Sequence record: MZ726791.1
From: Escherichia phage vB_EcoM_ASO1A
Reading direction: 5' to 3' (one strand)
DNA: 64,000 nucleotides
In this document: one piece after another, positions 1,052 to 50,775 of the stretch
How the letters are laid out: every line of letters begins with the position of its first letter
How positions within the stretch are numbered: position 1 is the first letter of the stretch
Made by a program: the position numbers and the translations under genes
Notes under the pieces: model-generated
The model's database searches: none
What the model was told of the DNA's origin: nothing
What the model saw: the letters and a program-made list of their open reading frames with translations, nothing else

Positions 1052-2467
1052 ATGAGCGAATTATTTAAACATGCGCACCTTCATGCAGGTCGAACTGAAA
1101 ATGGTGCTGTAAACCATACTTCATCAATGTCTGCTCTTGTAGACTTTTACAAAGCTGCTGGTTCAAGCCGTAGCAACGTAGAAATCTTACCAGACCTGTT
1201 CTACAAAGCTTTGCGTGAGGATGTTGATGTTGCAGTTCGTATTTTGCTTCATATGCGAGATGTACGAGAAGGTATGGGTGAGCGTAAAGCCTTCAGAACT
1301 GTTTTACTTCAAGCGATTGAAGACAAAGTTTTAGAGCCTACGCAGGTTCTTCGCATTATGGATAAGATTGCAGAACTTGGTCGTTTTGATGACTTCAAAA
1401 TCTTCGTAGGTACTCGTTTCGAGACAGATGCCTTCAAACATCTAGAAGCAGCATTACTAGACCCTGCAACAGCAGGTTTGGCGGCTAAGTGGTTACCACG
1501 AGTCAAACCACGTCATAAGCAGTTTGTAAAACGTTTCTGCAAGTTTGCCAACTTGAGTGAGAAAGAGTACCGCACACTGTTGTCTGCACTATCTGATACA
1601 GTTGAGCAAAAAATCTCTGCTAATGAGTTTGGTAAGATTGACTACAGTAAGATTCCTTCACTTGCTGCTGCACGTTACCAAAAACTGTTTAACCGCAAAG
1701 ATGGAGAACGCTACAAAGCTTACATCGAGTCCTTATCAAAGGGTGAGACTAAGATTAATGCTGGTGCTGTTTACCCATACGATGTAATTAAATCTGTTAA
1801 GCATGGTAATGCAGATGTTGCTAATGAGCAGTGGAAAGCACTACCAAACTGGGTGGCAGAGGGTGAAAACATCTTGTGTATGTCTGATGTTTCAAGCTCA
1901 ATGTCTTGGGTGAATTTTGGTTCAATTACTGCTCTTGATATTGGTGTTTCACTTGCATTGTATGTAGCAGAACGTAATACAGGTTGCTTTAAGAATGAGT
2001 TGATGGTTTATTCAACAAACCCTCACTTCATCGAACTGAGTGGTGATTTACGAAACCGTCATCGTCAGGTGATGCGACACGTTGAATATGGCTCAACTAA
2101 CTTACAAGCAGCTTTTGACCGTATTCTTGAAACAGGTAAAAGAAACAACTTGACTCAGAAAGATATGCCAAGTAAGCTTATCATCTTCTCCGATATGGAG
2201 TTCAATCAGGTTGATGGAGCTAACGGTCGTACAAACTTTGAAGCAATTCGTAGTAAGTACAAAAAAGCTGGATACGAAATGCCTCAACTGGTATTCTGGT
2301 ACTTAGCAAACCGTAATGGTACTTGCGAAGTGTCTGTTAAGGATAACGGTGTAGCAATGGTATCTGGTTTTTCTCCAGCTACTTTAAAAGCTCTGCTTGG
2401 TGGTGAGAAGTTTGACCCAATCAGCGTAATGCTCAAAGCAGTAATGATTGACCGTTATATCTGGTAA
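1052..2467 (+). CDS. von Willebrand factor A (vWA) domain protein with helical N-terminal region (Ro60/DUF2828-like architecture?)
   Basis: 471 aa; MIDAS-like DVSSSM (DxSxS) motif in C-terminal half; GAGAGAAGAGAG SD before ATG. Confidence 0.75.
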   Translation: MSELFKHAHLHAGRTENGAVNHTSSMSALVDFYKAAGSSRSNVEILPDLFYKALREDVDVAVRILLHMRDVREGMGERKAFRTVLLQAIEDKVLEPTQVLRIMDKIAELGRFDDFKIFVGTRFETDAFKHLEAALLDPATAGLAAKWLPRVKPRHKQFVKRFCKFANLSEKEYRTLLSALSDTVEQKISANEFGKIDYSKIPSLAAARYQKLFNRKDGERYKAYIESLSKGETKINAGAVYPYDVIKSVKHGNADVANEQWKALPNWVAEGENILCMSDVSSSMSWVNFGSITALDIGVSLALYVAERNTGCFKNELMVYSTNPHFIELSGDLRNRHRQVMRHVEYGSTNLQAAFDRILETGKRNNLTQKDMPSKLIIFSDMEFNQVDGANGRTNFEAIRSKYKKAGYEMPQLVFWYLANRNGTCEVSVKDNGVAMVSGFSPATLKALLGGEKFDPISVMLKAVMIDRYIW

Positions 2468-2485
2468 AAAGTTTTAAAAAGGGTA

Positions 2486-2520
2486 TTGACAATGTGTTTG
2501 ATACCCTTTAATATGTTCTA
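2486..2520 (+). promoter_or_regulatory. sigma70-like promoter (TTGACA - 17 nt - TAATAT) within inverted repeat GGGTAT...ATACCC
   Basis: Read directly; upstream of tRNA array. Confidence 0.55.
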
Positions 2521-2576
2521 CATAGAAACGAAACGAGAGCTTTTCTAAGATACTGAAAAATATTTTAAAAAAGTTC

Positions 2577-2612
2577 TTGACAATCACTAAAAAATAATGT
2601 TAAAGTGGTTAC
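2577..2612 (+). promoter_or_regulatory. sigma70-like promoter (TTGACA ... TAAAGT) preceding first tRNA
   Basis: Read directly. Confidence 0.45.
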
Positions 2613-2632
2613 ATAGAGTTTGAAAAGTTTAT

Positions 2633-2709
2633 CTCTGTTTAGCTCAGCTTGGTAGAGCGTTCCGTTTGGGGCGGTAAGGCCGGAGGTTCAAGTCCTCCAA
2701 CAGAGACCA
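2633..2709 (+). tRNA. tRNA-Pro (anticodon TGG)
   Basis: Acceptor CTCTGTT/AACAGAG, D-arm GCTCAGCTTGGTAGAGC, T-arm GGAGG-TTCAAGT-CCTCC, CCA encoded. Confidence 0.7.
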
Positions 2710-2716
2710 AATTAAT

Positions 2717-2794
2717 GTTCCAGTAGACAAAATGGTAAAGTCACCACTCTTTCAAAGTGGATATCTGAGGGTTCAAATCCCTTCTGGAACGCCA
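2717..2794 (+). tRNA. tRNA-Glu (anticodon TTC)
   Basis: Acceptor GTTCCAG/CTGGAAC, anticodon stem CCACT/AGTGG loop CTTTCAA, T-arm GAGGG-TTCAAAT-CCCTT, CCA. Confidence 0.7.
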
Positions 2795-2884
2795 GTTTTG
2801 ACAGAAGACCAATTACAGCAAACTTAATCTACTCATCTGACACGAAATCGGACAAAGAAGATATTTGGTCTGGTCATTGAGAAT

Positions 2885-2961
2885 TGCGGGTATAGAGAAA
2901 GGGCGTCTCACATGTCTCATTAGCATGGTATCGGCAGGTTCGACTCCTGCACCCGCCTCCA
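2885..2961 (+). tRNA. tRNA-Met/fMet/Ile2 (anticodon CAT)
   Basis: Anticodon arm CATGT-CTCATTA-GCATG, T-arm GCAGG-TTCGACT-CCTGC, CCA; 1:72 pair mismatched. Confidence 0.6.
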
Positions 2962-3038
2962 ATTTTGCAGAAGACCGTATTCAGCAACAAAATACTTTTT
3001 GCGGATAAAAGAAAAAACACGGTCTGGCAATGTATTAA

Positions 3039-3115
3039 GGTTAGGAAGCACATAAGGTATGTGCGGTCGCCTGTTAAGCGAATGGCACAGGGTTCGAATC
3101 CCTGACTAACCGCCA
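3039..3115 (+). tRNA. tRNA-Asn (anticodon GTT)
   Basis: Acceptor GGTTAGG/ACTAACC, D-stem GCAC/GTGC, anticodon loop CTGTTAA, T-arm CAGGG-TTCGAAT-CCCTG, CCA. Confidence 0.7.
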
Positions 3116-3124
3116 AATTTAAAT

Positions 3125-3212
3125 GTGTCGTTATCCCGTAGATGGTAGCGGTGGGGACTGTAAATCCCTTGTCATTGAGACTCGGTAGGTTCGACTCCTA
3201 CACGGCACACCA
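3125..3212 (+). tRNA. tRNA-Tyr (anticodon GTA), type II with long variable arm
   Basis: Acceptor GTGTCGT/ACGGCAC, anticodon arm GGGGA-CTGTAAA-TCCCT, long variable arm, T-arm GTAGG-TTCGACT-CCTAC, CCA. Confidence 0.65.
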
Positions 3213-3217
3213 ATAAA

Positions 3218-3295
3218 GGTTATGTAGTTTAATTTGGTTAAAATACTCCCCTGTCACGGGAGATGATGAGGGTTCAAATCCCTTCGTAACCGCCA
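3218..3295 (+). tRNA. tRNA-Asp (anticodon GTC)
   Basis: Acceptor GGTTATG/CGTAACC, anticodon arm CTCCC-CTGTCAC-GGGAG, T-arm GAGGG-TTCAAAT-CCCTT, CCA. Confidence 0.65.
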
Positions 3296-3321
3296 ATTTT
3301 GAGAGGGCTATTTAGCCCCTC

Positions 3322-3354
3322 CCTTAAAGGGTTCTTACGAGTATCCTTTAAAGG
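3322..3354 (+). repeat. conserved hairpin element copy A (TTAAAGGG-TTCTTACGAG-TATCCTTTAAAGG)
   Basis: Imperfect palindrome with conserved loop; related copies near 4169, 6671 and 35415. Confidence 0.5.
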
Positions 3355-3356
3355 AG

Positions 3357-3429
3357 CAGAAGACCAAATACAGCAAGAACGTATGAAATTTCAAGCCAAT
3401 TTAATTTTGAAAATTTAAACTTGGTCTGG
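3357..3429 (+). repeat. inter-tRNA spacer unit CAGAAGACC ... GGTCTGG (copy 3 of 4)
   Basis: Same terminal motifs as units at 2802-2873, 2968-3027 and 3443-3574; ends are complementary (AGACC/GGTCT). Confidence 0.45.
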
Positions 3430-3495
3430 CTCAACAAATTTACAGAAGACCGTTTACAGCAAAACTTAAACAATCTATTTCTCCGGTAAAGAAAA

Positions 3496-3560
3496 GGCGA
3501 AGGTTCGATTCCTTCACTCGGCAGATGTCGAGTTGGTGTAATGGTAGCACTTAAGATGAT
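3496..3560 (+). ncRNA. tRNA-like fragments: T-arm hairpin (GAAGG-TTCGATT-CCTTC) + 7-bp acceptor-like hairpin (ACTCGGC/GTCGAGT) + D-arm-like GTGTAATGGTAGCAC; pseudo-tRNA or structured RNA
   Basis: Read directly; elements are in non-canonical order (3' half before 5' half), so no canonical cloverleaf. Confidence 0.3.
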
Positions 3561-3723
3561 AAACAACGGTCTGGTAATTATCTTTGTAGATAAGTTATTA
3601 AGCTTACCTGTGAGTATGCGACCACAAAGGGTGAAAGGGTAAATTCTAGATTTAAACCCAAAAAGGCACATCGCTACAGACCTTAAGCAAGTCTGGGTAG
3701 CTTATCTACAAAGATAATTTAAT

Positions 3724-3798
3724 GGAAGTGTAGCAGAATGGTGATGCGGCAGACTTTTAATCTGACAGGCGATGGGTTCGAATCCCTCCACTTCTACC
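3724..3798 (+). tRNA. tRNA-Lys (anticodon TTT)
   Basis: Acceptor GGAAGTG/CACTTCT, anticodon stem CAGA/TCTG loop CTTTTAA, T-loop TTCGAAT, CCA; T-stem has two weak pairs. Confidence 0.55.
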
Positions 3799-3804
3799 AA
3801 AAAT

Positions 3805-3881
3805 GGTTCAGTCGCAGATAAGGTAATGCAAGGGTTTCATAAGCCCTATGAATGTGGGTTCGATTCCCACCTGAACCTCCA
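3805..3881 (+). tRNA. tRNA-Met/Ile2/fMet (anticodon CAT), second CAT tRNA
   Basis: Acceptor GGTTCAG/CTGAACC, anticodon arm AGGGT-TTCATAA-GCCCT, T-arm GTGGG-TTCGATT-CCCAC, CCA. Confidence 0.65.
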
Positions 3882-3882
3882 A

Positions 3883-3958
3883 GCTGGTATAGTTAAGAAG
3901 GTTATAACACTCCCCTGATAAGGGAACATCGGTGGTTCGATTCCACCTACCAGTACCA
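3883..3958 (+). tRNA. tRNA-Ile (anticodon GAT)
   Basis: Acceptor GCTGGTA/TACCAGT, D-stem GTTA/TAAC, anticodon loop CTGATAA, T-arm GGTGG-TTCGATT-CCACC, CCA. Confidence 0.7.
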
Positions 3959-3973
3959 ATTTCAATAAAGTTG

Positions 3974-4002
3974 TTGACATTGAGATGTGACTACTTTATA
4001 GT
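3974..4002 (+). promoter_or_regulatory. strong sigma70-like promoter (TTGACA - 17 nt - TATAGT) inside tRNA array
   Basis: Read directly; followed by ~200 nt without tRNA or ORF. Confidence 0.6.
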
Positions 4003-4168
4003 AACCTTAGTTTTCGTTGCGTAGCGTCTATTTTGCAAATTTAAAATAAATGCAAACGACAATGTTTTTCTGGCAGTAGCTTGATAGGCTAAACACCAGT
4101 GAGGTCTTCCAATCCCTCATCAAAGAATTTGGCGTACTCGCCCACGGTATGATTAATAAGGTGGGCAT

Positions 4169-4199
4169 CTTTAAGGGCTTTCTAAGAGAGTCTTTAAAG
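4169..4199 (+). repeat. conserved hairpin element copy B (CTTTAAGGGCTTTCTAAGAGAGTCTTTAAAG)
   Basis: Shares AGGG-YTTTCTAAGAGAGTC core and palindromic TTAAAG flanks with copies A and C. Confidence 0.5.
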
Positions 4200-4206
4200 A
4201 TAATTA

Positions 4207-4288
4207 CGGGGCGTATCTCAGCGGTCTTCTAAACCGCCGTTAACCGAGTAAGTGGAGTATGCGGGTTCGAGTCCTGCCGCCTCGACCA
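4207..4288 (+). tRNA. atypical tRNA-like gene, anticodon TCT (Arg) with no canonical D-arm and an extended variable region
   Basis: Acceptor CGGGGCG/CGCCTCG, anticodon arm GCGGT-CTTCTAA-ACCGC, T-arm GCGGG-TTCGAGT-CCTGC, CCA; only 7 nt between acceptor and anticodon stem. Confidence 0.4.
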
Positions 4289-4431
4289 ATTTAGTTAGCA
4301 GATTACTTAGACGACCTAAGCGGGTCTTCCTGTAAGGAGGTGGTCTGTATCTCATGTTTTCCAGAACATGTAAATAATCTGAGAAGGGGCTTTACAGTGT
4401 TGCGAAAATACGGTAAGCTTCGAATTACAGT

Positions 4432-4514
4432 ATGGGACGATGTTAAGACTCTAAGGCATGAGCAACGGCCTCCAAAACCGTTTCAAAGGGGTTCAACTCC
4501 TCCGTCCCATGCCA
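4432..4514 (+). tRNA. tRNA-Trp (anticodon CCA), enlarged D region
   Basis: Acceptor ATGGGAC/GTCCCAT, anticodon stem ACGG/CCGT loop CTCCAAA, T-loop TTCAACT, CCA. Confidence 0.5.
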
Positions 4515-4527
4515 AAGTCTTATTAGG

Positions 4528-4615
4528 GGTAGGTAGCGGCTAATGGTAGCCAAACTGTATTGAAAACAGTTGCCACTGTAGAGATACGGTGAGGGTTCGA
4601 CTCCTTTACTTACCG
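4528..4615 (+). tRNA. tRNA-Ser (anticodon TGA), type II, 3' CCA not encoded
   Basis: Acceptor GGTAGGT/ACTTACC, 3-bp D-stem, anticodon arm ACTGT-ATTGAAA-ACAGT, long variable arm, T-loop TTCGACT. Confidence 0.55.
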
Positions 4616-4769
4616 CCTAATAAGATTTACACCGTCCATGCTTGCTCGCATTTTCGGTTTATCCCTCGTGTATTGTCGTACACTGATAAAGCACCTAGTA
4701 GGTGTCACGGAGAAGAGATAATATCAAGCTCTCCAAAGGTTCTAGTCACCGGATTAAACAAGACTATGC

Positions 4770-4795
4770 AAAGACCTATTTAGGTCTTTTTAGAG
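4770..4795 (+). terminator. rho-independent terminator-like hairpin (AGACCTA/TAGGTCT + T-run)
   Basis: Perfect 7-bp stem followed by TTTTT; ends a ~150 nt non-coding stretch after tRNA-Ser. Confidence 0.5.
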
Positions 4796-4871
4796 GGCTT
4801 CTAAGGTTATTAGTCGCTTGTTGTGGAACCTTGTTGCTCAGGTTCTTAGAAGTTCTCTAAAAAGATTTAAT

Positions 4872-4950
4872 GGGAGATTGACGGCAACTTGGTAGACCTA
4901 TCTCGCTTAGAACGAGATGCTTGAGGGTTCGAATCCCTTGTCTCCTACCA
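4872..4950 (+). tRNA. tRNA with Leu anticodon TAG, Leu-like D-arm but short variable arm
   Basis: Acceptor GGGAGAT/GTCTCCT, anticodon arm TCTCG-CTTAGAA-CGAGA, T-arm GAGGG-TTCGAAT-CCCTT, CCA; D-loop CAACTTGGTAGA. Confidence 0.5.
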
Positions 4951-4957
4951 AATTAAT

Positions 4958-5033
4958 GCAGGTGTAGCAAAATGGTTATGCGGCTGACTCTTAATCAGTA
5001 AGACGATGGGTTCAATTCCCTCCACCTGTACCA
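4958..5033 (+). tRNA. tRNA-Lys (anticodon CTT)
   Basis: Acceptor GCAGGTG/CACCTGT, anticodon stem GCTGA/TCAGT loop CTCTTAA, T-loop TTCAATT, CCA; paralogous to Lys(TTT). Confidence 0.6.
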
Positions 5034-5039
5034 GACATT

Positions 5040-5115
5040 GGGGATGTAGTTTACATGGTTAAAACATAAGTTTTGCAAACTTAAGTACAGGGTTCAATTC
5101 CATGCTTCTCCACCA
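5040..5115 (+). tRNA. tRNA-Ala (anticodon TGC)
   Basis: D-stem GTTT/AAAC, anticodon arm TAAGT-TTTGCAA-ACTTA, T-loop TTCAATT, CCA. Confidence 0.6.
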
Positions 5116-5121
5116 ATTAGT

Positions 5122-5196
5122 GCATCCATAGTTTAAACGGGAAAATTACAGTCTTCCAAACTGAGGTTGAGGGTTCGATTCCCTCTGGATGCTCCA
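5122..5196 (+). tRNA. tRNA-Gly (anticodon TCC)
   Basis: Acceptor GCATCCA/TGGATGC, anticodon stem CAGT/ACTG loop CTTCCAA, T-arm GAGGG-TTCGATT-CCCTC, CCA. Confidence 0.65.
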
Positions 5197-5203
5197 AATT
5201 AAT

Positions 5204-5279
5204 GCTCCTATCGTATAATTGGCTATTACGGTTGCCTTGTAAGCAACTTATCAGGGTTCGAATCCTTGTGGGAGCACCA
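5204..5279 (+). tRNA. tRNA-Thr (anticodon TGT)
   Basis: Acceptor GCTCCTA/TGGGAGC, anticodon arm GTTGC-CTTGTAA-GCAAC, T-arm CAGGG-TTCGAAT-CCTTG, CCA. Confidence 0.7.
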
Positions 5280-5282
5280 ATT

Positions 5283-5372
5283 CAGAGGTCAAGTGAAAGA
5301 CCGCTGGTGTCAACTGAAGACCGTAACAAATTCCACGGAGTTGAGTTAGCGGCACAACTTCAGACCTCTTTC
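5283..5372 (+). ncRNA. candidate structured spacer RNA (long-range stem CAGAGGTC ... GACCTCTG enclosing internal hairpins)
   Basis: Complementary 8-mers ~80 nt apart between tRNA-Thr and tRNA-Val; no ORF, no tRNA fold. Confidence 0.25.
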
Positions 5373-5374
5373 AT

Positions 5375-5449
5375 GCTCGCTTAGTTTATATGGTAAAACA
5401 TCACCCTTACAAGATGAAGAAAAAGGTTCAAGTCCTTTAGTGAGTACCA
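5375..5449 (+). tRNA. tRNA-Val (anticodon TAC)
   Basis: Acceptor GCTCGCT/AGTGAGT, D-stem GTTT/AAAC, anticodon loop CTTACAA, T-arm AAAGG-TTCAAGT-CCTTT, CCA. Confidence 0.65.
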
Positions 5450-5450
5450 T

Positions 5451-5528
5451 GTTCCAGTATCCCAATTGGCAGAGGATGCAAGCTCAAACCTTGTATTAGT
5501 GACGGTTCGAATCCGTCTTGGAACACCA
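5451..5528 (+). tRNA. tRNA with Leu anticodon CAA, short variable arm
   Basis: Acceptor GTTCCAG/TTGGAAC, D-loop CAATTGGCAGA, anticodon stem GCAAG/CTTGT loop CTCAAAC, T-arm GACGG-TTCGAAT-CCGTC, CCA. Confidence 0.5.
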
Positions 5529-5533
5529 ATTTT

Positions 5534-5609
5534 GCAGGATTAGTTCAAATGGATAGAGCAACAGTCTACGAAGCTGTTAATAGGGGTTCGAATCCCTTAT
5601 CCTGCGCCA
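5534..5609 (+). tRNA. tRNA-Arg (anticodon ACG)
   Basis: Acceptor GCAGGAT/ATCCTGC, D-arm GTTC-AAATGGATA-GAGC, anticodon arm ACAGT-CTACGAA-GCTGT, T-arm AGGGG-TTCGAAT-CCCTT, CCA. Confidence 0.7.
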
Positions 5610-5626
5610 GATAAAAAGGTGATACT

Positions 5627-5869
5627 ATGCAAACATTAACAGTAGTTGAACATGAAAACTGTGAGAATATTGAGTTTGTCAGGGTCATTGGTGTTGAACA
5701 CCACATTTTCTTAAAAGTAGGGTACTTATGTGACCCCGCTAGAGTAGAAAGATTTATACGTGATTGTTTTGGTGGTAGACAGCTAAAGAGTGTTATTTTT
5801 GAGACAGTTTTACCAGAAGGTTTAGAAACGAATAATAACATTTATCTCCTTACAAGGATTAGACGATGA
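5627..5869 (+). CDS. hypothetical small protein embedded in tRNA array
   Basis: 80 aa ORF; AAGGTGA SD 7 nt upstream of ATG; directly follows tRNA-Arg. Confidence 0.4.
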   Translation: MQTLTVVEHENCENIEFVRVIGVEHHIFLKVGYLCDPARVERFIRDCFGGRQLKSVIFETVLPEGLETNNNIYLLTRIRR

Positions 5870-6423
5870 GATATTTAAAATATGCTTCATGGATTTTCCT
5901 AGCTTTGCTAGAACCATTAGCAGCAACCTTAGCAGTTATCTTAGCACCTTTCGTAGTTCCATTTTACAGTGAGAAGAAAGGCCACTTACCTTTCGGATTT
6001 AGATGGATGGAGACATATGACAACCCAATTGATGGTGACGAAGGTCATATCGAACGATGGGCTAAGATTAGAAAGATTGGTAAGCTGGGTGTCTACATGC
6101 AGAGAGTCGGATGGCTCTGGAGAAACAAAGCTTATAACTTCTCTTACCATGTATTAGGAAGAGATGTAAAAGATGTTACTAAGTGGAAAGGTAATATCAA
6201 CGTAAGTTCTGACCCTGAAGATAATCAGACAGGTTATCTCCTAATGTGGAACAGTAATGCTTGGGGATTATTCGCTTTTATCCCATCAATTAAAGTCTTT
6301 GGTAAACAATTTTACTGGAGAATTTATATTGGGTGGAAGCTAAAAAGTGTTGTCCCAGAAGAAAGAGCATTCTCAAGGGAAAGAGTTATGTTGGCATTCT
6401 TTATTCATCCACTAAGAAAGTAA
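5866..6423 (+). CDS. hypothetical membrane protein (N-terminal hydrophobic segment, Trp-rich)
   Basis: 185 aa; ATG with AAGGA SD; start overlaps upstream ORF stop (ATGA). Confidence 0.55.
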   Translation: MRYLKYASWIFLALLEPLAATLAVILAPFVVPFYSEKKGHLPFGFRWMETYDNPIDGDEGHIERWAKIRKIGKLGVYMQRVGWLWRNKAYNFSYHVLGRDVKDVTKWKGNINVSSDPEDNQTGYLLMWNSNAWGLFAFIPSIKVFGKQFYWRIYIGWKLKSVVPEERAFSRERVMLAFFIHPLRK

Positions 6424-6431
6424 AGATTTAA

Positions 6432-6507
6432 AGGGGATTAGTTTACAAGGTTAAAACCTCGGTCTTTGAAATCGAAGAAGTTGGTTCAATTCCAACATCC
6501 CCCGCCA
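6432..6507 (+). tRNA. tRNA-Gln (anticodon TTG)
   Basis: D-stem GTTT/AAAC, anticodon arm TCGGT-CTTTGAA-ATCGA, T-arm GTTGG-TTCAATT-CCAAC, CCA; 1:72 mismatch. Confidence 0.6.
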
Positions 6508-6509
6508 AT

Positions 6510-6588
6510 GCTCCATTACTCCAATTGGCAGAGAGGCCAGACTTAAAATCTGTGTTATGTATCGGTTCGAATCCGATATGGAGTACCA
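6510..6588 (+). tRNA. tRNA with Leu anticodon TAA, short variable arm
   Basis: Acceptor GCTCCAT/ATGGAGT, D-loop AATTGGCAGA, anticodon stem CAGA/TCTG loop CTTAAAA, T-arm ATCGG-TTCGAAT-CCGAT, CCA. Confidence 0.5.
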
Positions 6589-6593
6589 AATTT

Positions 6594-6669
6594 AGCGGTA
6601 TAGCATAACTGGCAATGCAACAGTCTCTGAAGCTGTCCTATTAAGGTTCAAATCCTTATGCCGCTGCCA
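6594..6669 (+). tRNA. tRNA-Gln (anticodon CTG)
   Basis: Acceptor AGCGGTA/TGCCGCT, anticodon arm ACAGT-CTCTGAA-GCTGT, T-arm TAAGG-TTCAAAT-CCTTA, CCA. Confidence 0.65.
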
Positions 6670-6670
6670 C

Positions 6671-6701
6671 TTCTAAGGGTTCTTACGAGAGTCCTTAAAT
6701 G
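6671..6701 (+). repeat. conserved hairpin element copy C (TTCTAAGGGTTCTTACGAGAGTCCTTAAATG)
   Basis: Near-identical loop (GGGTTCTTACGAG) to copy A. Confidence 0.5.
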
Positions 6702-6776
6702 TGGCCTTATCATAAATGGTAATGACCCATGCTGTGAACATGGTCTATACGGGTTCAAATCCCGTAGGTCACCCCA
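6701..6776 (+). tRNA. tRNA-His (anticodon GTG)
   Basis: Acceptor GTGGCCT/AGGTCAC, D-stem TCAT/ATGA, anticodon arm CCATG-CTGTGAA-CATGG, T-arm ACGGG-TTCAAAT-CCCGT, CCA; no encoded G-1. Confidence 0.7.
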
Positions 6777-6781
6777 ATTTA

Positions 6782-6858
6782 TAGTCCAAGTAGCTTATAT
6801 GGTTAAAGCGCGTGTCTGAAAAACATGAGAAGAGGGTTCAAATCCCACTGGACTACCA
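6782..6858 (+). tRNA. tRNA-Phe (anticodon GAA), 3' CCA not fully encoded
   Basis: Acceptor TAGTCCA/TGGACTA, D-stem GCTT/AAGC, anticodon arm CGTGT-CTGAAAA-ACATG, T-loop TTCAAAT; odd 8-9 spacing. Confidence 0.55.
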
Positions 6859-6874
6859 ATTTCAAAGGTGCTTA

Positions 6875-7609
6875 ATGAAAGAGATGACAGAACAAGGTAA
6901 GGAGATTTTTAATCTCTTAAAAACCGGTAAAGGGTTTTCTAACCCACTTATTACTGGTGCAGCAGTTCTCGGTGGAACCGTAGCTGCCTCTACATCACTT
7001 GTAAGCTCTATTAGTTCTGTAACAGACCCTACAATGCAGGAGAAACTTGTTGCTGCTGGACTTACAACAGTCCTTCTAAACAGCTTTACAACAAGCCTTA
7101 CAAGCACTACAGCAACTACTAAGACCCTGACAGACTACGGTCAAAAGTCTATTGATGAGTTTTCATCACGTATGCAGGTAGCAAAGGGATATTCCAATGT
7201 TATGAGTGCAGCAGGAGAACAAGTTGGTTGTACACCGTTCAGTGGTATTATGGGTGTTGCTACAGAATATGGTCAAAAAGCTATTGATACAATTAACAGT
7301 ACACTAGAGAGTGTTAACGATGTATTAAGTGACTTACAAGACGCTATTGATGAGGGTCTTGATACTATTTCTGATTTAGCTAATCAGGCTGTTAGTAAGA
7401 TTAATGAAGGTATTTCAAAGATTACAGCTTATGCAGATGAAGTTGTGCAGATGATTGAAGAAGAAGCTGCCCTTATTGCAGAGTACCTTAAAACGAATAT
7501 CAATGGGTTCTTAGCAGGTATCTTACCAGACTGGTTTGACGATGCCTGTAAAACTGGTGTAATTGACACTATTGCAACACCAGAAATGAAGAACGCATTA
7601 CAGAAATAA
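6875..7609 (+). CDS. hypothetical protein (Ala/Ser/Thr-rich N-terminal half, acidic helical C-terminal half)
   Basis: Track ORF 6812-7609 trimmed to in-frame ATG (Met22) with AAAGGTG SD, because the first 45 nt overlap tRNA-Phe. Confidence 0.55.
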   Translation: MKEMTEQGKEIFNLLKTGKGFSNPLITGAAVLGGTVAASTSLVSSISSVTDPTMQEKLVAAGLTTVLLNSFTTSLTSTTATTKTLTDYGQKSIDEFSSRMQVAKGYSNVMSAAGEQVGCTPFSGIMGVATEYGQKAIDTINSTLESVNDVLSDLQDAIDEGLDTISDLANQAVSKINEGISKITAYADEVVQMIEEEAALIAEYLKTNINGFLAGILPDWFDDACKTGVIDTIATPEMKNALQK

Positions 7610-7611
7610 AT

Positions 7612-7704
7612 GGAAGATTAACCCTAAAAGGTAAGGGAGCAGTTTGCTAAACTGCCAGTAGCTGAGAAATCGGTGTACCAGTTCAAGTCTGGTATCTTCC
7701 TCCA
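7612..7704 (+). tRNA. tRNA-Ser (anticodon GCT), type II
   Basis: Acceptor GGAAGAT/ATCTTCC, anticodon arm GCAGT-TTGCTAA-ACTGC, long variable arm, T-arm ACCAG-TTCAAGT-CTGGT, CCA. Confidence 0.7.
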
Positions 7705-7708
7705 ATTT

Positions 7709-7784
7709 GAATCCGTGACAGAAATGGCTATGTGCCTGTCTGCAAAACAGGTTTATAAGGGTTCGAGTCCCTTCGGATTCTCCA
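7709..7784 (+). tRNA. tRNA-Cys (anticodon GCA)
   Basis: Acceptor GAATCCG/CGGATTC, anticodon arm CCTGT-CTGCAAA-ACAGG, T-arm AAGGG-TTCGAGT-CCCTT, CCA. Confidence 0.7.
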
Positions 7785-7821
7785 AGTTATTTTACTCTCT
7801 CTCAATTAAAATAATAATAAT

Positions 7822-7881
7822 GCCCTGCTATAAGTATTCTTCCTTTCGCTACCGAAGAGTATTTTTAGACAGGGCTTTTTT
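7822..7881 (+). terminator. rho-independent terminator ending the tRNA array (GCCCTG ... CAGGGC + T6)
   Basis: Long hairpin followed by TTTTTT immediately after last tRNA. Confidence 0.6.
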
Positions 7882-7946
7882 ACAGAGTTATACTTTATAA
7901 GAAGGCTTATACAGTATGTCTCTGACGTACATTGTGGTTTCTCCTT

Positions 7947-7970
7947 GACGGTCTCTGTGCCGTCTTTTTT
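7947..7970 (+). terminator. second terminator hairpin (GACGG ... CCGTC + T6)
   Basis: Read directly. Confidence 0.5.
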
Positions 7971-8006
7971 AAGGAGAAACATGGTTAATTATTTGGAGAA
8001 AACATA

Positions 8007-9846: not shown

Positions 9847-11313
9847 ATGGCAGATATTACAGAAACACAAGAAAGCTTACCACCATTTAGAATGGGTGAA
9901 GTAGGTTCTTTGGGTCTGAAGGTTAAGAATGGAAGAATCTATGAAGAACCTCGTCAGGCACTAAGGTTCCCTGAAAGTATTAAAACTTTCCAATTAATGA
10001 TGCGTGACCCTGCTGTAGCAGCATCTGTAAATATTATTAAGATGTTTGTCAGAAAAGTCAACTGGAGATTCGTACCTCCAAAGGGAAAAGAGCAAGACCC
10101 TAAAATGCTTGAAAGAGCAGACTTCTTTAATTCTTTAATGGATGACATGGAGCATGATTGGGCAGATTTTATTAATTCTGTAATGTCATTCTGCACTTAT
10201 GGGTTTTGTGTTAACGAGAAAGTTTATAAGAAGCGACAGGGTAAAAAAGGAAAGTACCAGTCAAAATTTGATGATGGTCTAATTGGATGGGCTAAATTAC
10301 CAATCAGAAACCAATCAACACTTGATAAGTGGTATTTTGACGAAGACTTTAGAAAAGTTACTGGTGTTAGACAGAATCTGAGAAATGTTTCACATATTGC
10401 TGGAGCAATTAATCTTGGAGAAAGACCACTAACAAGAAAACTTCCACGAGCTAAATTCATGCTGTTTAAGTATGATGATGAATATGGAAACCCAGAAGGT
10501 CGTTCACCATTACTTAATGCCTATGTACCGTGGAAGTATAAAGTTCAGATTGAAGAGTACGAAGCCGTTGGTGTTTCAAGAGACTTGGTAGGTATGCCAA
10601 AGATTGGTTTACCACCAGATTATCTGGATGAAAATGCAGAACCTGAAAAGAAAGCTTTCGTACAATACTGCAAAACTGTTGTTAACGATATGATTGCTAA
10701 TGATAGAGCAGGTTTAATCTGGCCTAGATATATCGACCCAGATACTAAAGAGGATATTTTCGAGTTCTCATTAGTTTCTAGACAGGGTGCTAAAGCATAC
10801 GATACAGGTTCTATTATTGACAGATATTCCAAGCAGATTATGATGGCATTTATGTCAGATGTTCTTGCTATGGGTCAGTCAAAATATGGTTCATTCTCTC
10901 TTGCAGATTCTAAGACAAGCTTACTAGCAATGTCAGTGGATATTCTGCTGAAGCAAATTAAGAACGTAATTAACCGTGATTTAGTTGCACAGACTTATGC
11001 TCTTAATATGTGGGACGATGAAGAACATGTACAAATCACTTATGATGATATCGAAACTCCAGACCTTGAAGCAATTGGTTCTTATATCCAGAAGACTGTT
11101 GCAGTAGGTGCTTTGGAAGTTGACAAAGAGCTATCTAACAAGCTTAGAGAGCATATTGGTCTTCCTCCTGCTGATGAGTCTCAACCAGTATCTGAAAAGC
11201 TTTCTCCAAATAGTCAAAGCCGTTCAGGAGATGGTTATAAGACCGCTGGAGAAGGTACTGCAAAGACACCTTCAGCGAAAGACCCAAGCACAGCAAATAA
11301 GGCAAATAAATAA
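9847..11313 (+). CDS. portal protein (putative)
   Basis: 488 aa directly after terminase; track start 9838 is GTG, moved to ATG; Ser/Lys-rich C-terminus. Confidence 0.65.
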   Translation: MADITETQESLPPFRMGEVGSLGLKVKNGRIYEEPRQALRFPESIKTFQLMMRDPAVAASVNIIKMFVRKVNWRFVPPKGKEQDPKMLERADFFNSLMDDMEHDWADFINSVMSFCTYGFCVNEKVYKKRQGKKGKYQSKFDDGLIGWAKLPIRNQSTLDKWYFDEDFRKVTGVRQNLRNVSHIAGAINLGERPLTRKLPRAKFMLFKYDDEYGNPEGRSPLLNAYVPWKYKVQIEEYEAVGVSRDLVGMPKIGLPPDYLDENAEPEKKAFVQYCKTVVNDMIANDRAGLIWPRYIDPDTKEDIFEFSLVSRQGAKAYDTGSIIDRYSKQIMMAFMSDVLAMGQSKYGSFSLADSKTSLLAMSVDILLKQIKNVINRDLVAQTYALNMWDDEEHVQITYDDIETPDLEAIGSYIQKTVAVGALEVDKELSNKLREHIGLPPADESQPVSEKLSPNSQSRSGDGYKTAGEGTAKTPSAKDPSTANKANK

Positions 11314-50450: not shown

Positions 50451-50775
50451 AGCAAAAAAGCTATCTTATGATGACATTATCTCAGGTGCTAAATTAGGTG
50501 TTGATAGTATCGGACAAGATGTTAAGCACGGGGACACAGTCATGTACTGTGACGACAGAAGAGGCAGAAGTGCAATCTTGTTTGGAAGAGTTGTGTGCAA
50601 GATGCGAGGTAATTACGTTGTTGAAGACATGAATGTGGATGTCACAAAACAGCTTGAAATAATTATGAATAGTAATATATCATGGTTCGTGAATTGTATG
50701 CACACCTCTTCAGTCACAAAGGTAAGTGATAAGTTTTACGATATGTGGCAGAATGAGCAAATTTTCAAGATTTAA
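50443..50775 (+). CDS. hypothetical protein
   Basis: 110 aa, GTG start with GGAG upstream. Confidence 0.4.
   Translation: MSKAKKLSYDDIISGAKLGVDSIGQDVKHGDTVMYCDDRRGRSAILFGRVVCKMRGNYVVEDMNVDVTKQLEIIMNSNISWFVNCMHTSSVTKVSDKFYDMWQNEQIFKI

Follow-up and report, generated by a model that had tools for sequence, protein, structure and literature searches.

A candidate YrlA-like tRNA mimic and a second structured RNA downstream of a Ro60-like protein gene in the tRNA cluster of a Felixounavirus

What is encoded in the spacer between tRNA-Asp and tRNA-Lys of Escherichia phage vB_EcoM_ASO1A? We analyzed a stretch of 64,000 nucleotides (nt) of this Felixounavirus (MZ726791.1; the window), in which 25 tRNA genes form a plus-strand cluster (2633-7784) with the spacer (3296-3723) inside it. 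A preliminary description of the window had pointed there to tRNA-like fragments in permuted order, followed by a long-range inverted repeat (IR), and had offered a structured RNA or a decayed tRNA as the explanation. We conclude that the spacer probably encodes two adjacent noncoding RNAs. The first, RNA 1, would be a Y-like tRNA mimic of the YrlA design that partners a Ro60-like protein encoded upstream. The second, the IR RNA, would be a separate RNA specific to the Ounavirinae.

RNA 1 carries the parts of a tRNA in circularly permuted order on a stem formed by its own ends. Its features are as follows.

3441-3577, plus strand: Y-like RNA 4, with a circularly permuted tRNA-like module (supported by fold, covariation, and a score of 159 bits with R1, the covariance model built from this element)
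3441-3462, plus strand: 5' strand of the basal stem, TAC, internal loop AGA, AGACCGT, then the single-stranded TTTACAGCAA motif
3478-3494, plus strand: variable (V) arm, TTTCT-CCGGTAA-AGAAA, resembling a tRNA-Thr(GGT) anticodon arm
3499-3515, plus strand: T arm, GAAGG-TTCGATT-CCTTC
3516-3533, plus strand: acceptor-stem-like hairpin, ACTCGGC (3516-3522), loop AGAT, GTCGAGT (3527-3533)
3536-3550, plus strand: D arm, GTGT-AATGGTA-GCAC, with the equivalents of A14 and G18-G19
3565-3577, plus strand: 3' strand of the basal stem, AACGGTCT-G-GTA

The preliminary description had correctly read a T-arm hairpin between the two tRNA genes and a D-arm-like stretch after the next hairpin, which puts the 3' half before the 5' half. 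The acceptor-like hairpin does have seven base pairs (bp), but its pairing, described as perfect, comprises six Watson-Crick pairs and one G-U pair (G3521-U3528). The connector TG joins this hairpin to the D arm. In the minimum-energy fold of 3435-3575, an outer helix (AGACCGUU at 3447-3454 with AACGGUCU at 3564-3571) and a short connecting helix are accompanied by the V, T, acceptor-like, and D hairpins. The same fold is predicted for relatives of the element. A scan of the 64 kb for a T arm, a 6-7-bp hairpin, and a D arm in succession returned a single canonical copy, at 3499 (TTCGA T loop, 2-nt connector, and 4-bp D stem). The same scan gave one looser match, at 50591 (TGCAAGA loop, 6-bp hairpin, and 3-nt connector).

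RNA 1 does not score as a canonical tRNA. ARAGORN called neither a tRNA nor a tmRNA on it in the window, and its partial match to the Rfam tRNA model reaches 22 bits, below the gathering score of 29, across model positions 7-64 only. At a permissive threshold, an Rfam scan of the region and three relatives likewise gave this partial tRNA match alone, with no group I intron, Y RNA, tmRNA, or other family. A group I intron, one of the classes raised in the preliminary description, is therefore not supported. A Y RNA is the best match by design, although no Rfam Y RNA family was hit.

RNA 1 is conserved in a manner that follows its predicted structure. The spacer is 100% identical to that of Salmonella phages FSL SP-010 and SP-012 and of E. 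coli phage ASO1B, and 251 phage records match it, nearly all of them FelixO1-like (Felixounavirus, Suspvirus, and Mooglevirus; Ounavirinae). Among the 15 unique versions of the element that we assembled from GenBank and IMG/VR loci of Ounavirinae, no change is seen in the T arm, the D-arm stem, or the basal stem, the whole 3441-3462 strand included, and one D-loop position varies. The acceptor-like stem differs between lineages and is fully paired in three versions: ACTCGGC/GTCGAGT, ACACGTT/GGCGTGT, and ACCCTTC-G-CCA-AACA-GAAGGGT, the last (Moogle type) encoding CCA. Within Ounavirinae, three of the seven stem pairs show compensatory changes. Across the 15 sequences, 95.5% of alignment cells pair, vs 41-48% when the partners are slid. 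The anticodon-like V arm is the least constrained part, with a loop of 7, 6, or 5 nt whose sequence depends on the lineage. SUSP2 and Sf13 have a canonical 7-nt CUGGUAA loop on a 5-bp stem, and the window has a C at position 33. Five of the 15 sequences, all Felix-type, have a 6-nt loop through a 1-nt deletion; the Moogle type has a different stem with a 5-nt loop, and the locus L023 differs again. A variable anticodon-like arm amid invariant or compensated arms disfavors both a decoding tRNA and random decay.

The decoding possibility would be a functional tRNA-Thr(GGU), permuted or split, whose precursor is cut and then perhaps ligated or circularized, as in Cyanidioschyzon merolae. The permuted tRNA genes of that alga yield ordinary decoding tRNAs via a circular intermediate, using splicing machinery of the eukaryotic/archaeal kind. 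RNA 1 shares with them a tRNA 3' part upstream of the 5' part in one transcript; it differs in that its anticodon-like arm is unconserved and its ends are locked in a stem of putative protein-binding type. The canonical CU-GGU-AA loop and 5-bp stem of SUSP2 and Sf13 speak for a tRNA-Thr, as do the tRNA-Thr-GGT calls of tRNAscan-SE, the CCA encoded in some lineages, and the fact that the phage otherwise has only tRNA-Thr(UGU). We nevertheless consider this reading very improbable. The supposed anticodon arm is the part that varies most (C33 in the window; 7-, 6-, and 5-nt loops), the acceptor and discriminator bases vary by lineage so that no single amino-acid identity results, and the element is one of four built on a common basal stem, the other three of which have no tRNA part. 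We saw no ligase or splicing endonuclease, enzymes for which no search was made.

Decay, the other explanation offered earlier, would make the element functionless debris, the 3' half of one tandem tRNA gene joined to the 5' half of the next. Tandem duplication with loss of the outer halves is a textbook route to permuted order, and the region is a mosaic, indel-rich tRNA cluster. Yet the T and D arms stay invariant while the flanking spacers diverge, every lineage preserves acceptor pairing through compensatory changes, and the same permuted design recurs beside Ro60-like proteins that are only 34-56% identical. Given a permuted order and a paired acceptor hairpin retained across three genera, the chance that this is a decayed tRNA seems negligible.

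Some GenBank records annotate a tRNA-Thr-GGT of 129-131 nt here on the basis of tRNAscan-SE (L001 1600-1728 in ASO1B; L002 901-1031 in REP5), corresponding to 3395-3523 of the window. The annotated gene consists of the V and T arms of the Y-like RNA together with a weak upstream 5' half that forms 5/7 acceptor pairs. Such annotations are probably misreadings of the Y-like RNA.

Copies of the tRNA mimic are also found in distant phages. R1 detects them close to DUF2828/DUF7788 genes, on the same strand, and the proteins encoded by these genes are 34-56% identical to the window protein.

L038: 73 bits, N-CCA encoded
L037: 64 and 50 bits
L046, Klebsiella phage phi1_175008: 62 and 49 bits, in tandem right after the gene
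L042: 56 bits (N-CCA encoded) and 42 bits
L039: 51 bits
L044, Mycobacterium phage BigCheese: 51 bits, 100 nt after a gene annotated “Ro-like RNA binding protein”
L036, Vibrio phage phi-pp2: 44 bits

All of these copies, including that of the mycobacteriophage, retain the (U/A)ACAGCAA motif, and plain hairpins of the same design flank them in BigCheese and the Klebsiella phage. In the Moogle-type, L038, and L042 copies, N-CCA directly follows the acceptor 3' strand. A strict pattern scan missed the distant copies that the covariance model recovered. In an alignment of 20 matching sequences, 95% of cells pair vs 36-44% for slid partners, and 26 of the 35 pairs show changes on both sides, among them all seven acceptor pairs. 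The two parts of the basal stem are compensated at 4/7 and 3/3 pairs, and the T stem covaries in distant members. The structured RNA proposed in the preliminary description is thus supported by folds and by compensatory changes, both in Ounavirinae and in distant phages. Aeromonas phage Aeh1 (L045) has an annotated 122-nt “tRNA-Val” (10184-10305) ~2.8 kb downstream of its DUF2828 gene. It overlaps a weak R1 match (19 bits, 10094-10233) and might be another Y-like tRNA mimic.

The proposed protein partner is predicted to have the fold of Ro60.

1052-2467, plus strand: gene for a Ro60-like protein of 471 amino acids (aa), Pfam DUF2828 + DUF7788

This gene ends 974 nt upstream of RNA 1 on the same strand. 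The AlphaFold2 model of its product (pLDDT 88, pTM 0.88) was compared with the PDB using Foldseek, and the best 11 matches are all Ro60/TROVE structures, matched over the full length with probability 1.00 and TM scores of 0.5-0.66. They include the Ro60 of Thermus phage phiLo (9l5y, the top match), Xenopus Ro60 (2i91 and 1yvp; TM 0.60-0.66), and D. radiodurans Rsr (2nvo). These full-length matches place in the model the HEAT-repeat ring and the C-terminal vWA domain that characterize Ro60. The DUF2828/DUF7788 family occurs in 709 phage records (Escherichia, Mycobacterium, Salmonella, Vibrio, Listeria, Staphylococcus, Campylobacter, and others), and its annotation in mycobacteriophages is “Ro-like RNA binding protein”. 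Our literature searches on DUF2828 and on Felixounavirus RNA-seq returned nothing useful. A gene with DUF5681 (599-970) directly precedes the Ro60-like gene, and the pair is kept in L034, L035, L038, and L042.

A protein of this type has been studied in another Felixounavirus. Bas63 gp130 is Ro60-like, is encoded directly upstream of tRNA genes, and counters the “ppl” defense, and its authors guessed that Y RNAs are hidden among the tRNA genes (2024 preprint, PMC11482910). From the shared genus and gene position, we infer that gp130 is orthologous to the window protein.

RNA 1 closely resembles YrlA in design. YrlA RNAs, known from bacteria and mycobacteriophages, have the arm order V-T-acceptor-D, many of them with long variable arms like those of class II tRNAs (PMC4201824; crystal structure 6CU1, Wang et al. 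2018, 10.1101/312249), and the criterion of Chen et al. (2014) was a position on the strand of Ro60 and within 4 kb of it (PMC4201824). RNA 1 shows the same end-to-end stem (3441-3454 paired with 3565-3576), bearing the V arm, the T arm, a closed acceptor-like hairpin, and the D arm, with the D- and T-loop nucleotides that form the tRNA elbow. The V arm and acceptor-like stem vary in sequence in both. A gene for a Ro60-type protein, assigned at the level of fold, lies within 4 kb on the same strand, and simpler, YrlB-like hairpins occur alongside. The 7-bp acceptor-like stem recalls Mycobacterium smegmatis YrlA, an RNA with a stem of that length that RNase P cleaves and that acquires CCA in vivo (PMC4201824; 10.1101/312249). 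The presumed co-transcription with tRNAs recalls the Y RNAs of D. radiodurans, a lineage separate from YrlA, which are co-transcribed with a tRNA (PMC4201824).

The differences from YrlA lie where the protein would bind. RNA 1 has an AGA/G-loop basal stem and the (U/A)ACAGCAA motif in place of GNCGAA(N)G, its putative partner is a DUF2828 + DUF7788 protein and not one with Pfam TROVE + vWA_Ro60, its D-stem and T-stem sequences are unlike those of the S. Typhimurium RNA, and the window elements are scattered among genuine tRNA genes. Mycobacteriophage Bxz1 served as a control. Its gp220 has Pfam TROVE + vWA_Ro60, and ~200 nt upstream lies a canonical YrlA whose closing stem bears two motifs of the GNCGAA type, GGCCGAGAG and GGCCGAAGG, and lacks ACAGCAA. 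The R1 alignment to this YrlA was local and confined to the V-T-acceptor-D arms (12.9 bits, model positions 36-111). Because the presumed protein-binding module and the protein sequence family both differ, we file RNA 1 as a variant of YrlA and not as a member of YrlA as originally defined. Thermus phage phiLo also has a Ro60 homologue (phiRo60) beside Y-like RNAs, Yrl1 and Yrl2; those RNAs, encoded upstream of the gene, were selected for a stem-bulge-stem with a CGAA motif, and no likeness to tRNA is described for them (PMC12135203). In the literature we searched, which excluded the supplementary tables of Chen et al. (2014), we found no description of the variant, its motif, or its wide co-distribution with DUF2828-type proteins.

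Several observations weigh against a Y-like RNA paired with a Ro60-like protein. Both RNAs are known here from sequence, predicted folds, and comparison. Taken alone, the tRNA-like element folds with only modest z-scores (-0.3 to -2.6), and the 20-sequence alignment was fitted to the R1 model, which favors the structure. The motif GNCGAA(N0-1)G, the presumed contact with Rsr/Ro60, is not in its place. A regular-expression scan of 2400-8000 found only GGCGAAGG at 3496, at the V/T junction, and one unrelated site, and the former is polymorphic, reading GGAGAAGG or GGTGAAGG in relatives. The 1052-2467 product has no match to Pfam TROVE (PF05731) or vWA_Ro60 (PF25045), and a sequence search against the PDB retrieved no Ro60 structure. 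In L035 and Yersinia phage P778 (L034), the gene is accompanied by simple hairpins, and no tRNA mimic was detected. Furthermore, gp130 alone, on a plasmid or inserted in T7, counters ppl (PMC11482910). The ppl phenotype thus needs none of these RNAs, which may act in a different role.

The basal stem of RNA 1 is shared with three plain hairpins between the Ro60-like gene and RNA 1.

2800-2876, plus strand: Y-like hairpin 1, GAC-AGA-AGACCAA...TTGGTCT-G-GTC, then TTACAGCAA; R1 34.9 bits
2966-3030, plus strand: Y-like hairpin 2, same basal stem, TTCAGCAA motif; R1 37.2 bits, E = 5.5e-6
3355-3432, plus strand: Y-like hairpin 3, same basal stem, ATACAGCAA motif

The window holds five plus-strand copies each of CAGAAGACC and of GGTCTGG, and four of the five form ordered pairs within 2800-3575 (CAGAAGACC starting at 2802, 2968, 3357, and 3443; GGTCTGG at 2867, 3021, 3423, and 3568). 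In the predicted folds, all four pairs form a common basal module, xxC-AGA-AGACCnn...nnGGUCU-G-Gxx, whose 5' side is followed by (U/A)(A/U)CAGCAA, in RNA 1 the single-stranded UUUACAGCAA. A tRNA part is thus present in one of the four elements. Hairpins 1 and 2 are conserved in L035, and hairpin 3 is nearly invariant across Felixouna-, Susp-, and Moogleviruses. The CAGAAGACC motif was not found in Yersinia phage P778, where R1 gives hairpin-type elements only.

The second RNA lies immediately downstream of RNA 1.

3576-3719, plus strand: IR RNA (~145 nt), closing helix of ~23 bp, 3576-3599 with 3696-3719, enclosing ~96 nt
3677-3695, plus strand: inner hairpin of the IR RNA, CAGAC-CTTAAGCAA-GTCTG
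3724-3799, plus strand: tRNA-Lys(UUU), which starts 5 nt past the end of the IR RNA

The 18-nt inverted repeat noticed earlier is exact (3577-3594 on the plus strand, 3701-3718 on the minus strand), and no such repeat is expected by chance (100 shuffles). It can be lengthened to 22 nt with 95% complementarity. The predicted fold has a helix of ~24 bp (-48.3 kcal/mol, z = -5.3). The IR RNA exists in three sequence types, represented by the window, by SUSP2/Moogle/GLBO_sp7, and by L035. All three keep the ~23-bp closing helix and the 3' inner hairpin with its UUAAGCAA-like loop, and ten of the 30 consensus pairs are compensated. Its covariance model, R2, scores 164.8 bits on the plus strand vs 40.9 on the minus strand. 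This asymmetry, together with G-U pairs, places the RNA on the plus strand. It has no match in Rfam, and R2 detected no copies outside Ounavirinae.

The preliminary description had regarded the inverted repeat and the tRNA-like part as a single object. We find instead two neighboring RNAs that have separate closing helices and vary independently. GLBO_sp7, a Felixounavirus, combines the Felix-type tRNA mimic with the other version of the IR RNA, and L035 has an IR RNA with no tRNA mimic, so the IR RNA is inherited independently. In BLAST comparisons, similarity to many relatives ends at 3589 and 3611, within the 5' arm of the inverted repeat or shortly beyond it. This suggests that the IR RNA may be exchanged by recombination, in the manner of a cassette.

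The simplest reading of the IR helix is a processing site for RNase III. Stems cut by this enzyme flank rRNAs and the early RNAs of phage T7. The IR helix resembles them as a long-range, near-perfect helix of at least two turns around an RNA in a polycistronic precursor, and it differs in being known from sequence only and in enclosing an RNA that comes in three divergent versions. A near-perfect two-turn helix in the precursor that ends 5 nt before tRNA-Lys leads us to infer, with moderate confidence, that RNase III would cut here. Visual inspection of L038 and L042 shows a helix in a similar position and a UU(A/G)A(G/A)CAA loop upstream of tRNA-Lys. Inverted repeats in L038 (9844-10023) and L042 (4317-4505 and 5789-5953), with arms of 16-28 nt that enclose 110-160 nt, lie immediately upstream of tRNA-Pro or tRNA-Lys. 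Helix-enclosed RNAs before particular tRNAs may thus be recurrent. Tag-like short frames in the type B IR RNA (ADEFLEHDSRLAY followed by a stop) were considered and dropped because they stop early in GLBO_sp7 and SUSP2.

Both elements could also be processing punctuation and nothing else, RNase P and RNase III cut sites in the tRNA precursor with no link to Ro60. They do lie between the genes of a tRNA operon that has promoters of its own, the 7-bp acceptor-like stem is of the kind preferred by RNase P, the IR helix is long enough for RNase III, and gp130 is effective against ppl without these RNAs. Punctuation leaves unexplained, however, the invariant internal-loop basal stem and the ACAGCAA motif, which are common to four elements and kept in a mycobacteriophage, as well as the constant neighborhood of DUF2828-type Ro60-like genes. 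In BigCheese, no tRNA gene is annotated within 5 kb on either side of the Ro-like gene, and the remaining spacers of the tRNA cluster in the window have no such elements. Hence, we regard punctuation alone as distinctly unlikely.

A permuted T arm and acceptor stem also raise the question of a tmRNA. Under this explanation, the element would be the tRNA-like domain of a two-piece permuted tmRNA with the tag ANDNVFLAVA. Precursors of two-piece tmRNAs (RF04321; alpha- and beta-proteobacteria, cyanobacteria) are matured by tRNA-processing enzymes into two base-paired pieces, and their genes have the order T arm, acceptor 3' strand, CCA, acceptor 5' strand (PMC11915505), an order shared by the window element with its loop between the acceptor strands. 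ARAGORN calls a permuted tmRNA with the tag ANDNVFLAVA and two stops in phages Mijalis and Mordin (L006 732-1480, L007 1160-1909), genome announcements or notes list a tmRNA for Moogle, Felix O1, and Mushroom, and the same tag occurs in the window at 4049-4084.

Other features of the element are hard to reconcile with a tmRNA. No acceptor type has the alanine identity pair G3:U70. The first three pairs are G1-C72, U2-G71, and C3-G70 in the window, G-U, G-U, and C-G in Susp, and G-C, A-U, and A-U in Moogle. The window tag is more than 500 nt downstream, past tRNA-Lys, tRNA-Met, tRNA-Ile, and a sigma-70 promoter with 11/12 matches, and in Mijalis and Mordin the ARAGORN call links the T arm and CCA acceptor hairpin to a tag more than 600 nt away. 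ARAGORN is silent in this window. The Rfam tmRNA_permuted model reaches 29 bits against a gathering score of 47 and does so with the T arm of tRNA-Ile, not with this element; RF04321, RF01849, and RF00023 have no match over 3290-3730, and nearby sub-threshold matches skip the element. Two-piece tmRNAs differ further in that RNA 1 has a true D arm and no internal tag frame. There is no conserved tag-like frame in 3553-3723, where candidate frames stop in GLBO_sp7 and SUSP2. A better tRNA-like partner, with G3:U70, A73, and CCA, lies beside the tag at 4207-4288, and L035 has the tag without this element. A tmRNA therefore seems to us extremely improbable. We judge the ARAGORN call to be an artefact as regards this element, which has probably also been misread in the “ssrA/tmRNA” calls for FelixO1-like genomes.

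The tag itself belongs to a tmRNA-like module at 3974-4288. This module comprises the 11/12 sigma-70-like promoter (3974-4002), an A-rich leader, and GCAAACGACAATGTTTTTCTGGCAGTAGCTTGATAG (4049-4084), which reads ANDNVFLAVA and two stops, close to the E. coli SsrA tag; Rfam tmRNA matches are sub-threshold. At 4207-4288 there is a tRNA-like RNA that lacks a D arm, has G3:U70, A73, and CCA, and resembles the tmRNA 3' end in its 3' part. We regard it as a candidate “TLD-only” mini-tmRNA 3' of the tag. Both the tag and a counterpart of 4207-4288 are kept in L035, where synonymous and compensatory changes are seen. The tag module also has a homologue, unannotated, at 2490-2740 of L043, between the Q antiterminator and holin genes of a lambdoid prophage of E. 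coli WP4-S18-ESBL-08. It is ~81% identical to window 4043-4167 and carries the tag ANEEMYLAVA and a stop, and ARAGORN calls nothing there. About 100 nt past its tag is a long stem, GGAAAGAGCA/TGCTCTTTCC, around a T arm. This module matches 339 of 5426 E. coli genomes, and 247 places are on plasmids.

Other features of the spacer and the cluster are as follows.

3218-3295, plus strand: tRNA-Asp, the left neighbor of the spacer
3301-3354, plus strand: two small conserved hairpins, GAGAGGGC..GCCCCTC and AAAGGG-TTCTTACGAGTA-TCCTTT; fold z = -3.0

The small hairpin AAGGG-TTCTTACGAG(T/A)(A/G)-TCCTT is present twice, at 3327-3351 and 6675-6699, both in tRNA spacers (repeat family D16), and the copy at 3327-3351 shows a compensatory G-C to A-T change in relatives. 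The region had been described as free of open reading frames (ORFs), which is literally untrue, since a 107-aa ORF occupies 3348-3671 on the minus strand and there are short ORFs on the plus strand. Some GenBank records annotate hypothetical proteins over the spacer. Relatives carry 1-, 2-, and 4-nt indels that break the 107-aa frame, which is thus not a conserved coding frame, and “hypothetical protein” features that use it are probably spurious. A tRNA-like sequence missed by ARAGORN lies at 4433-4514, with a perfect 7-bp acceptor (ATGGGAC/GTCCCAT), G-CCA, a T-arm-like GGTTCAACTCC, the loop CTCCAAA (anticodon CCA, Trp), and an aberrant D region. Rfam matches it only to tRNA-Sec, at 23 bits.

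How might a YrlA-like mimic and an IR RNA work from this position? Both RNAs would be made from the polycistronic transcript of the tRNA cluster and freed by the enzymes that process the neighboring tRNAs. The basal module would be the binding site of the Ro60-like protein, and the tRNA-like module would present a tRNA elbow that recruits or decoys a factor that recognizes tRNAs. RNase P probably cuts in the hairpin loop, between T3526 and G3527, since a full 7-bp stem is stacked on the T arm and CCA is encoded in three lineages. Such a cut would leave a CCA-tailed RNA in two pieces that the acceptor and basal helices keep joined, as experiments have shown for M. smegmatis YrlA. Cleavage at the IR helix by RNase III would part RNA 1 from tRNA-Lys and release the enclosed RNA of ~100 nt. 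We know of no partner for the tRNA-like module of bacterial YrlA.

A further-reaching version, which we offer tentatively and think rather unlikely to hold in full, is that DUF2828/DUF7788 proteins are a second, phage-borne branch of Ro60 with a Y-RNA family of their own, marked by ACAGCAA and a bulged stem and not by GNCGAA. In that case, the mimic, cut by RNase P, CCA-tailed, and possibly aminoacylated, would tether or decoy host factors directed at tRNAs, such as tRNA-cleaving defense nucleases or the translation machinery.

RNA 1 is a known kind of RNA; the variant, its motif, and its wide distribution appear to be new. The locus supplies four candidate RNA partners, with coordinates, for a type of protein reported to block anti-phage defense, and it defines a conserved motif distinct from the canonical Ro60-binding motif. 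The same RNA design is found beside DUF2828-type Ro60-like genes in very different phages. With candidate RNAs, motif, and distribution defined, roles in binding, processing, and anti-defense are directly testable in tractable phages. If the further-reaching version is true, the phage tRNA cluster would double as an anti-defense ribonucleoprotein locus.

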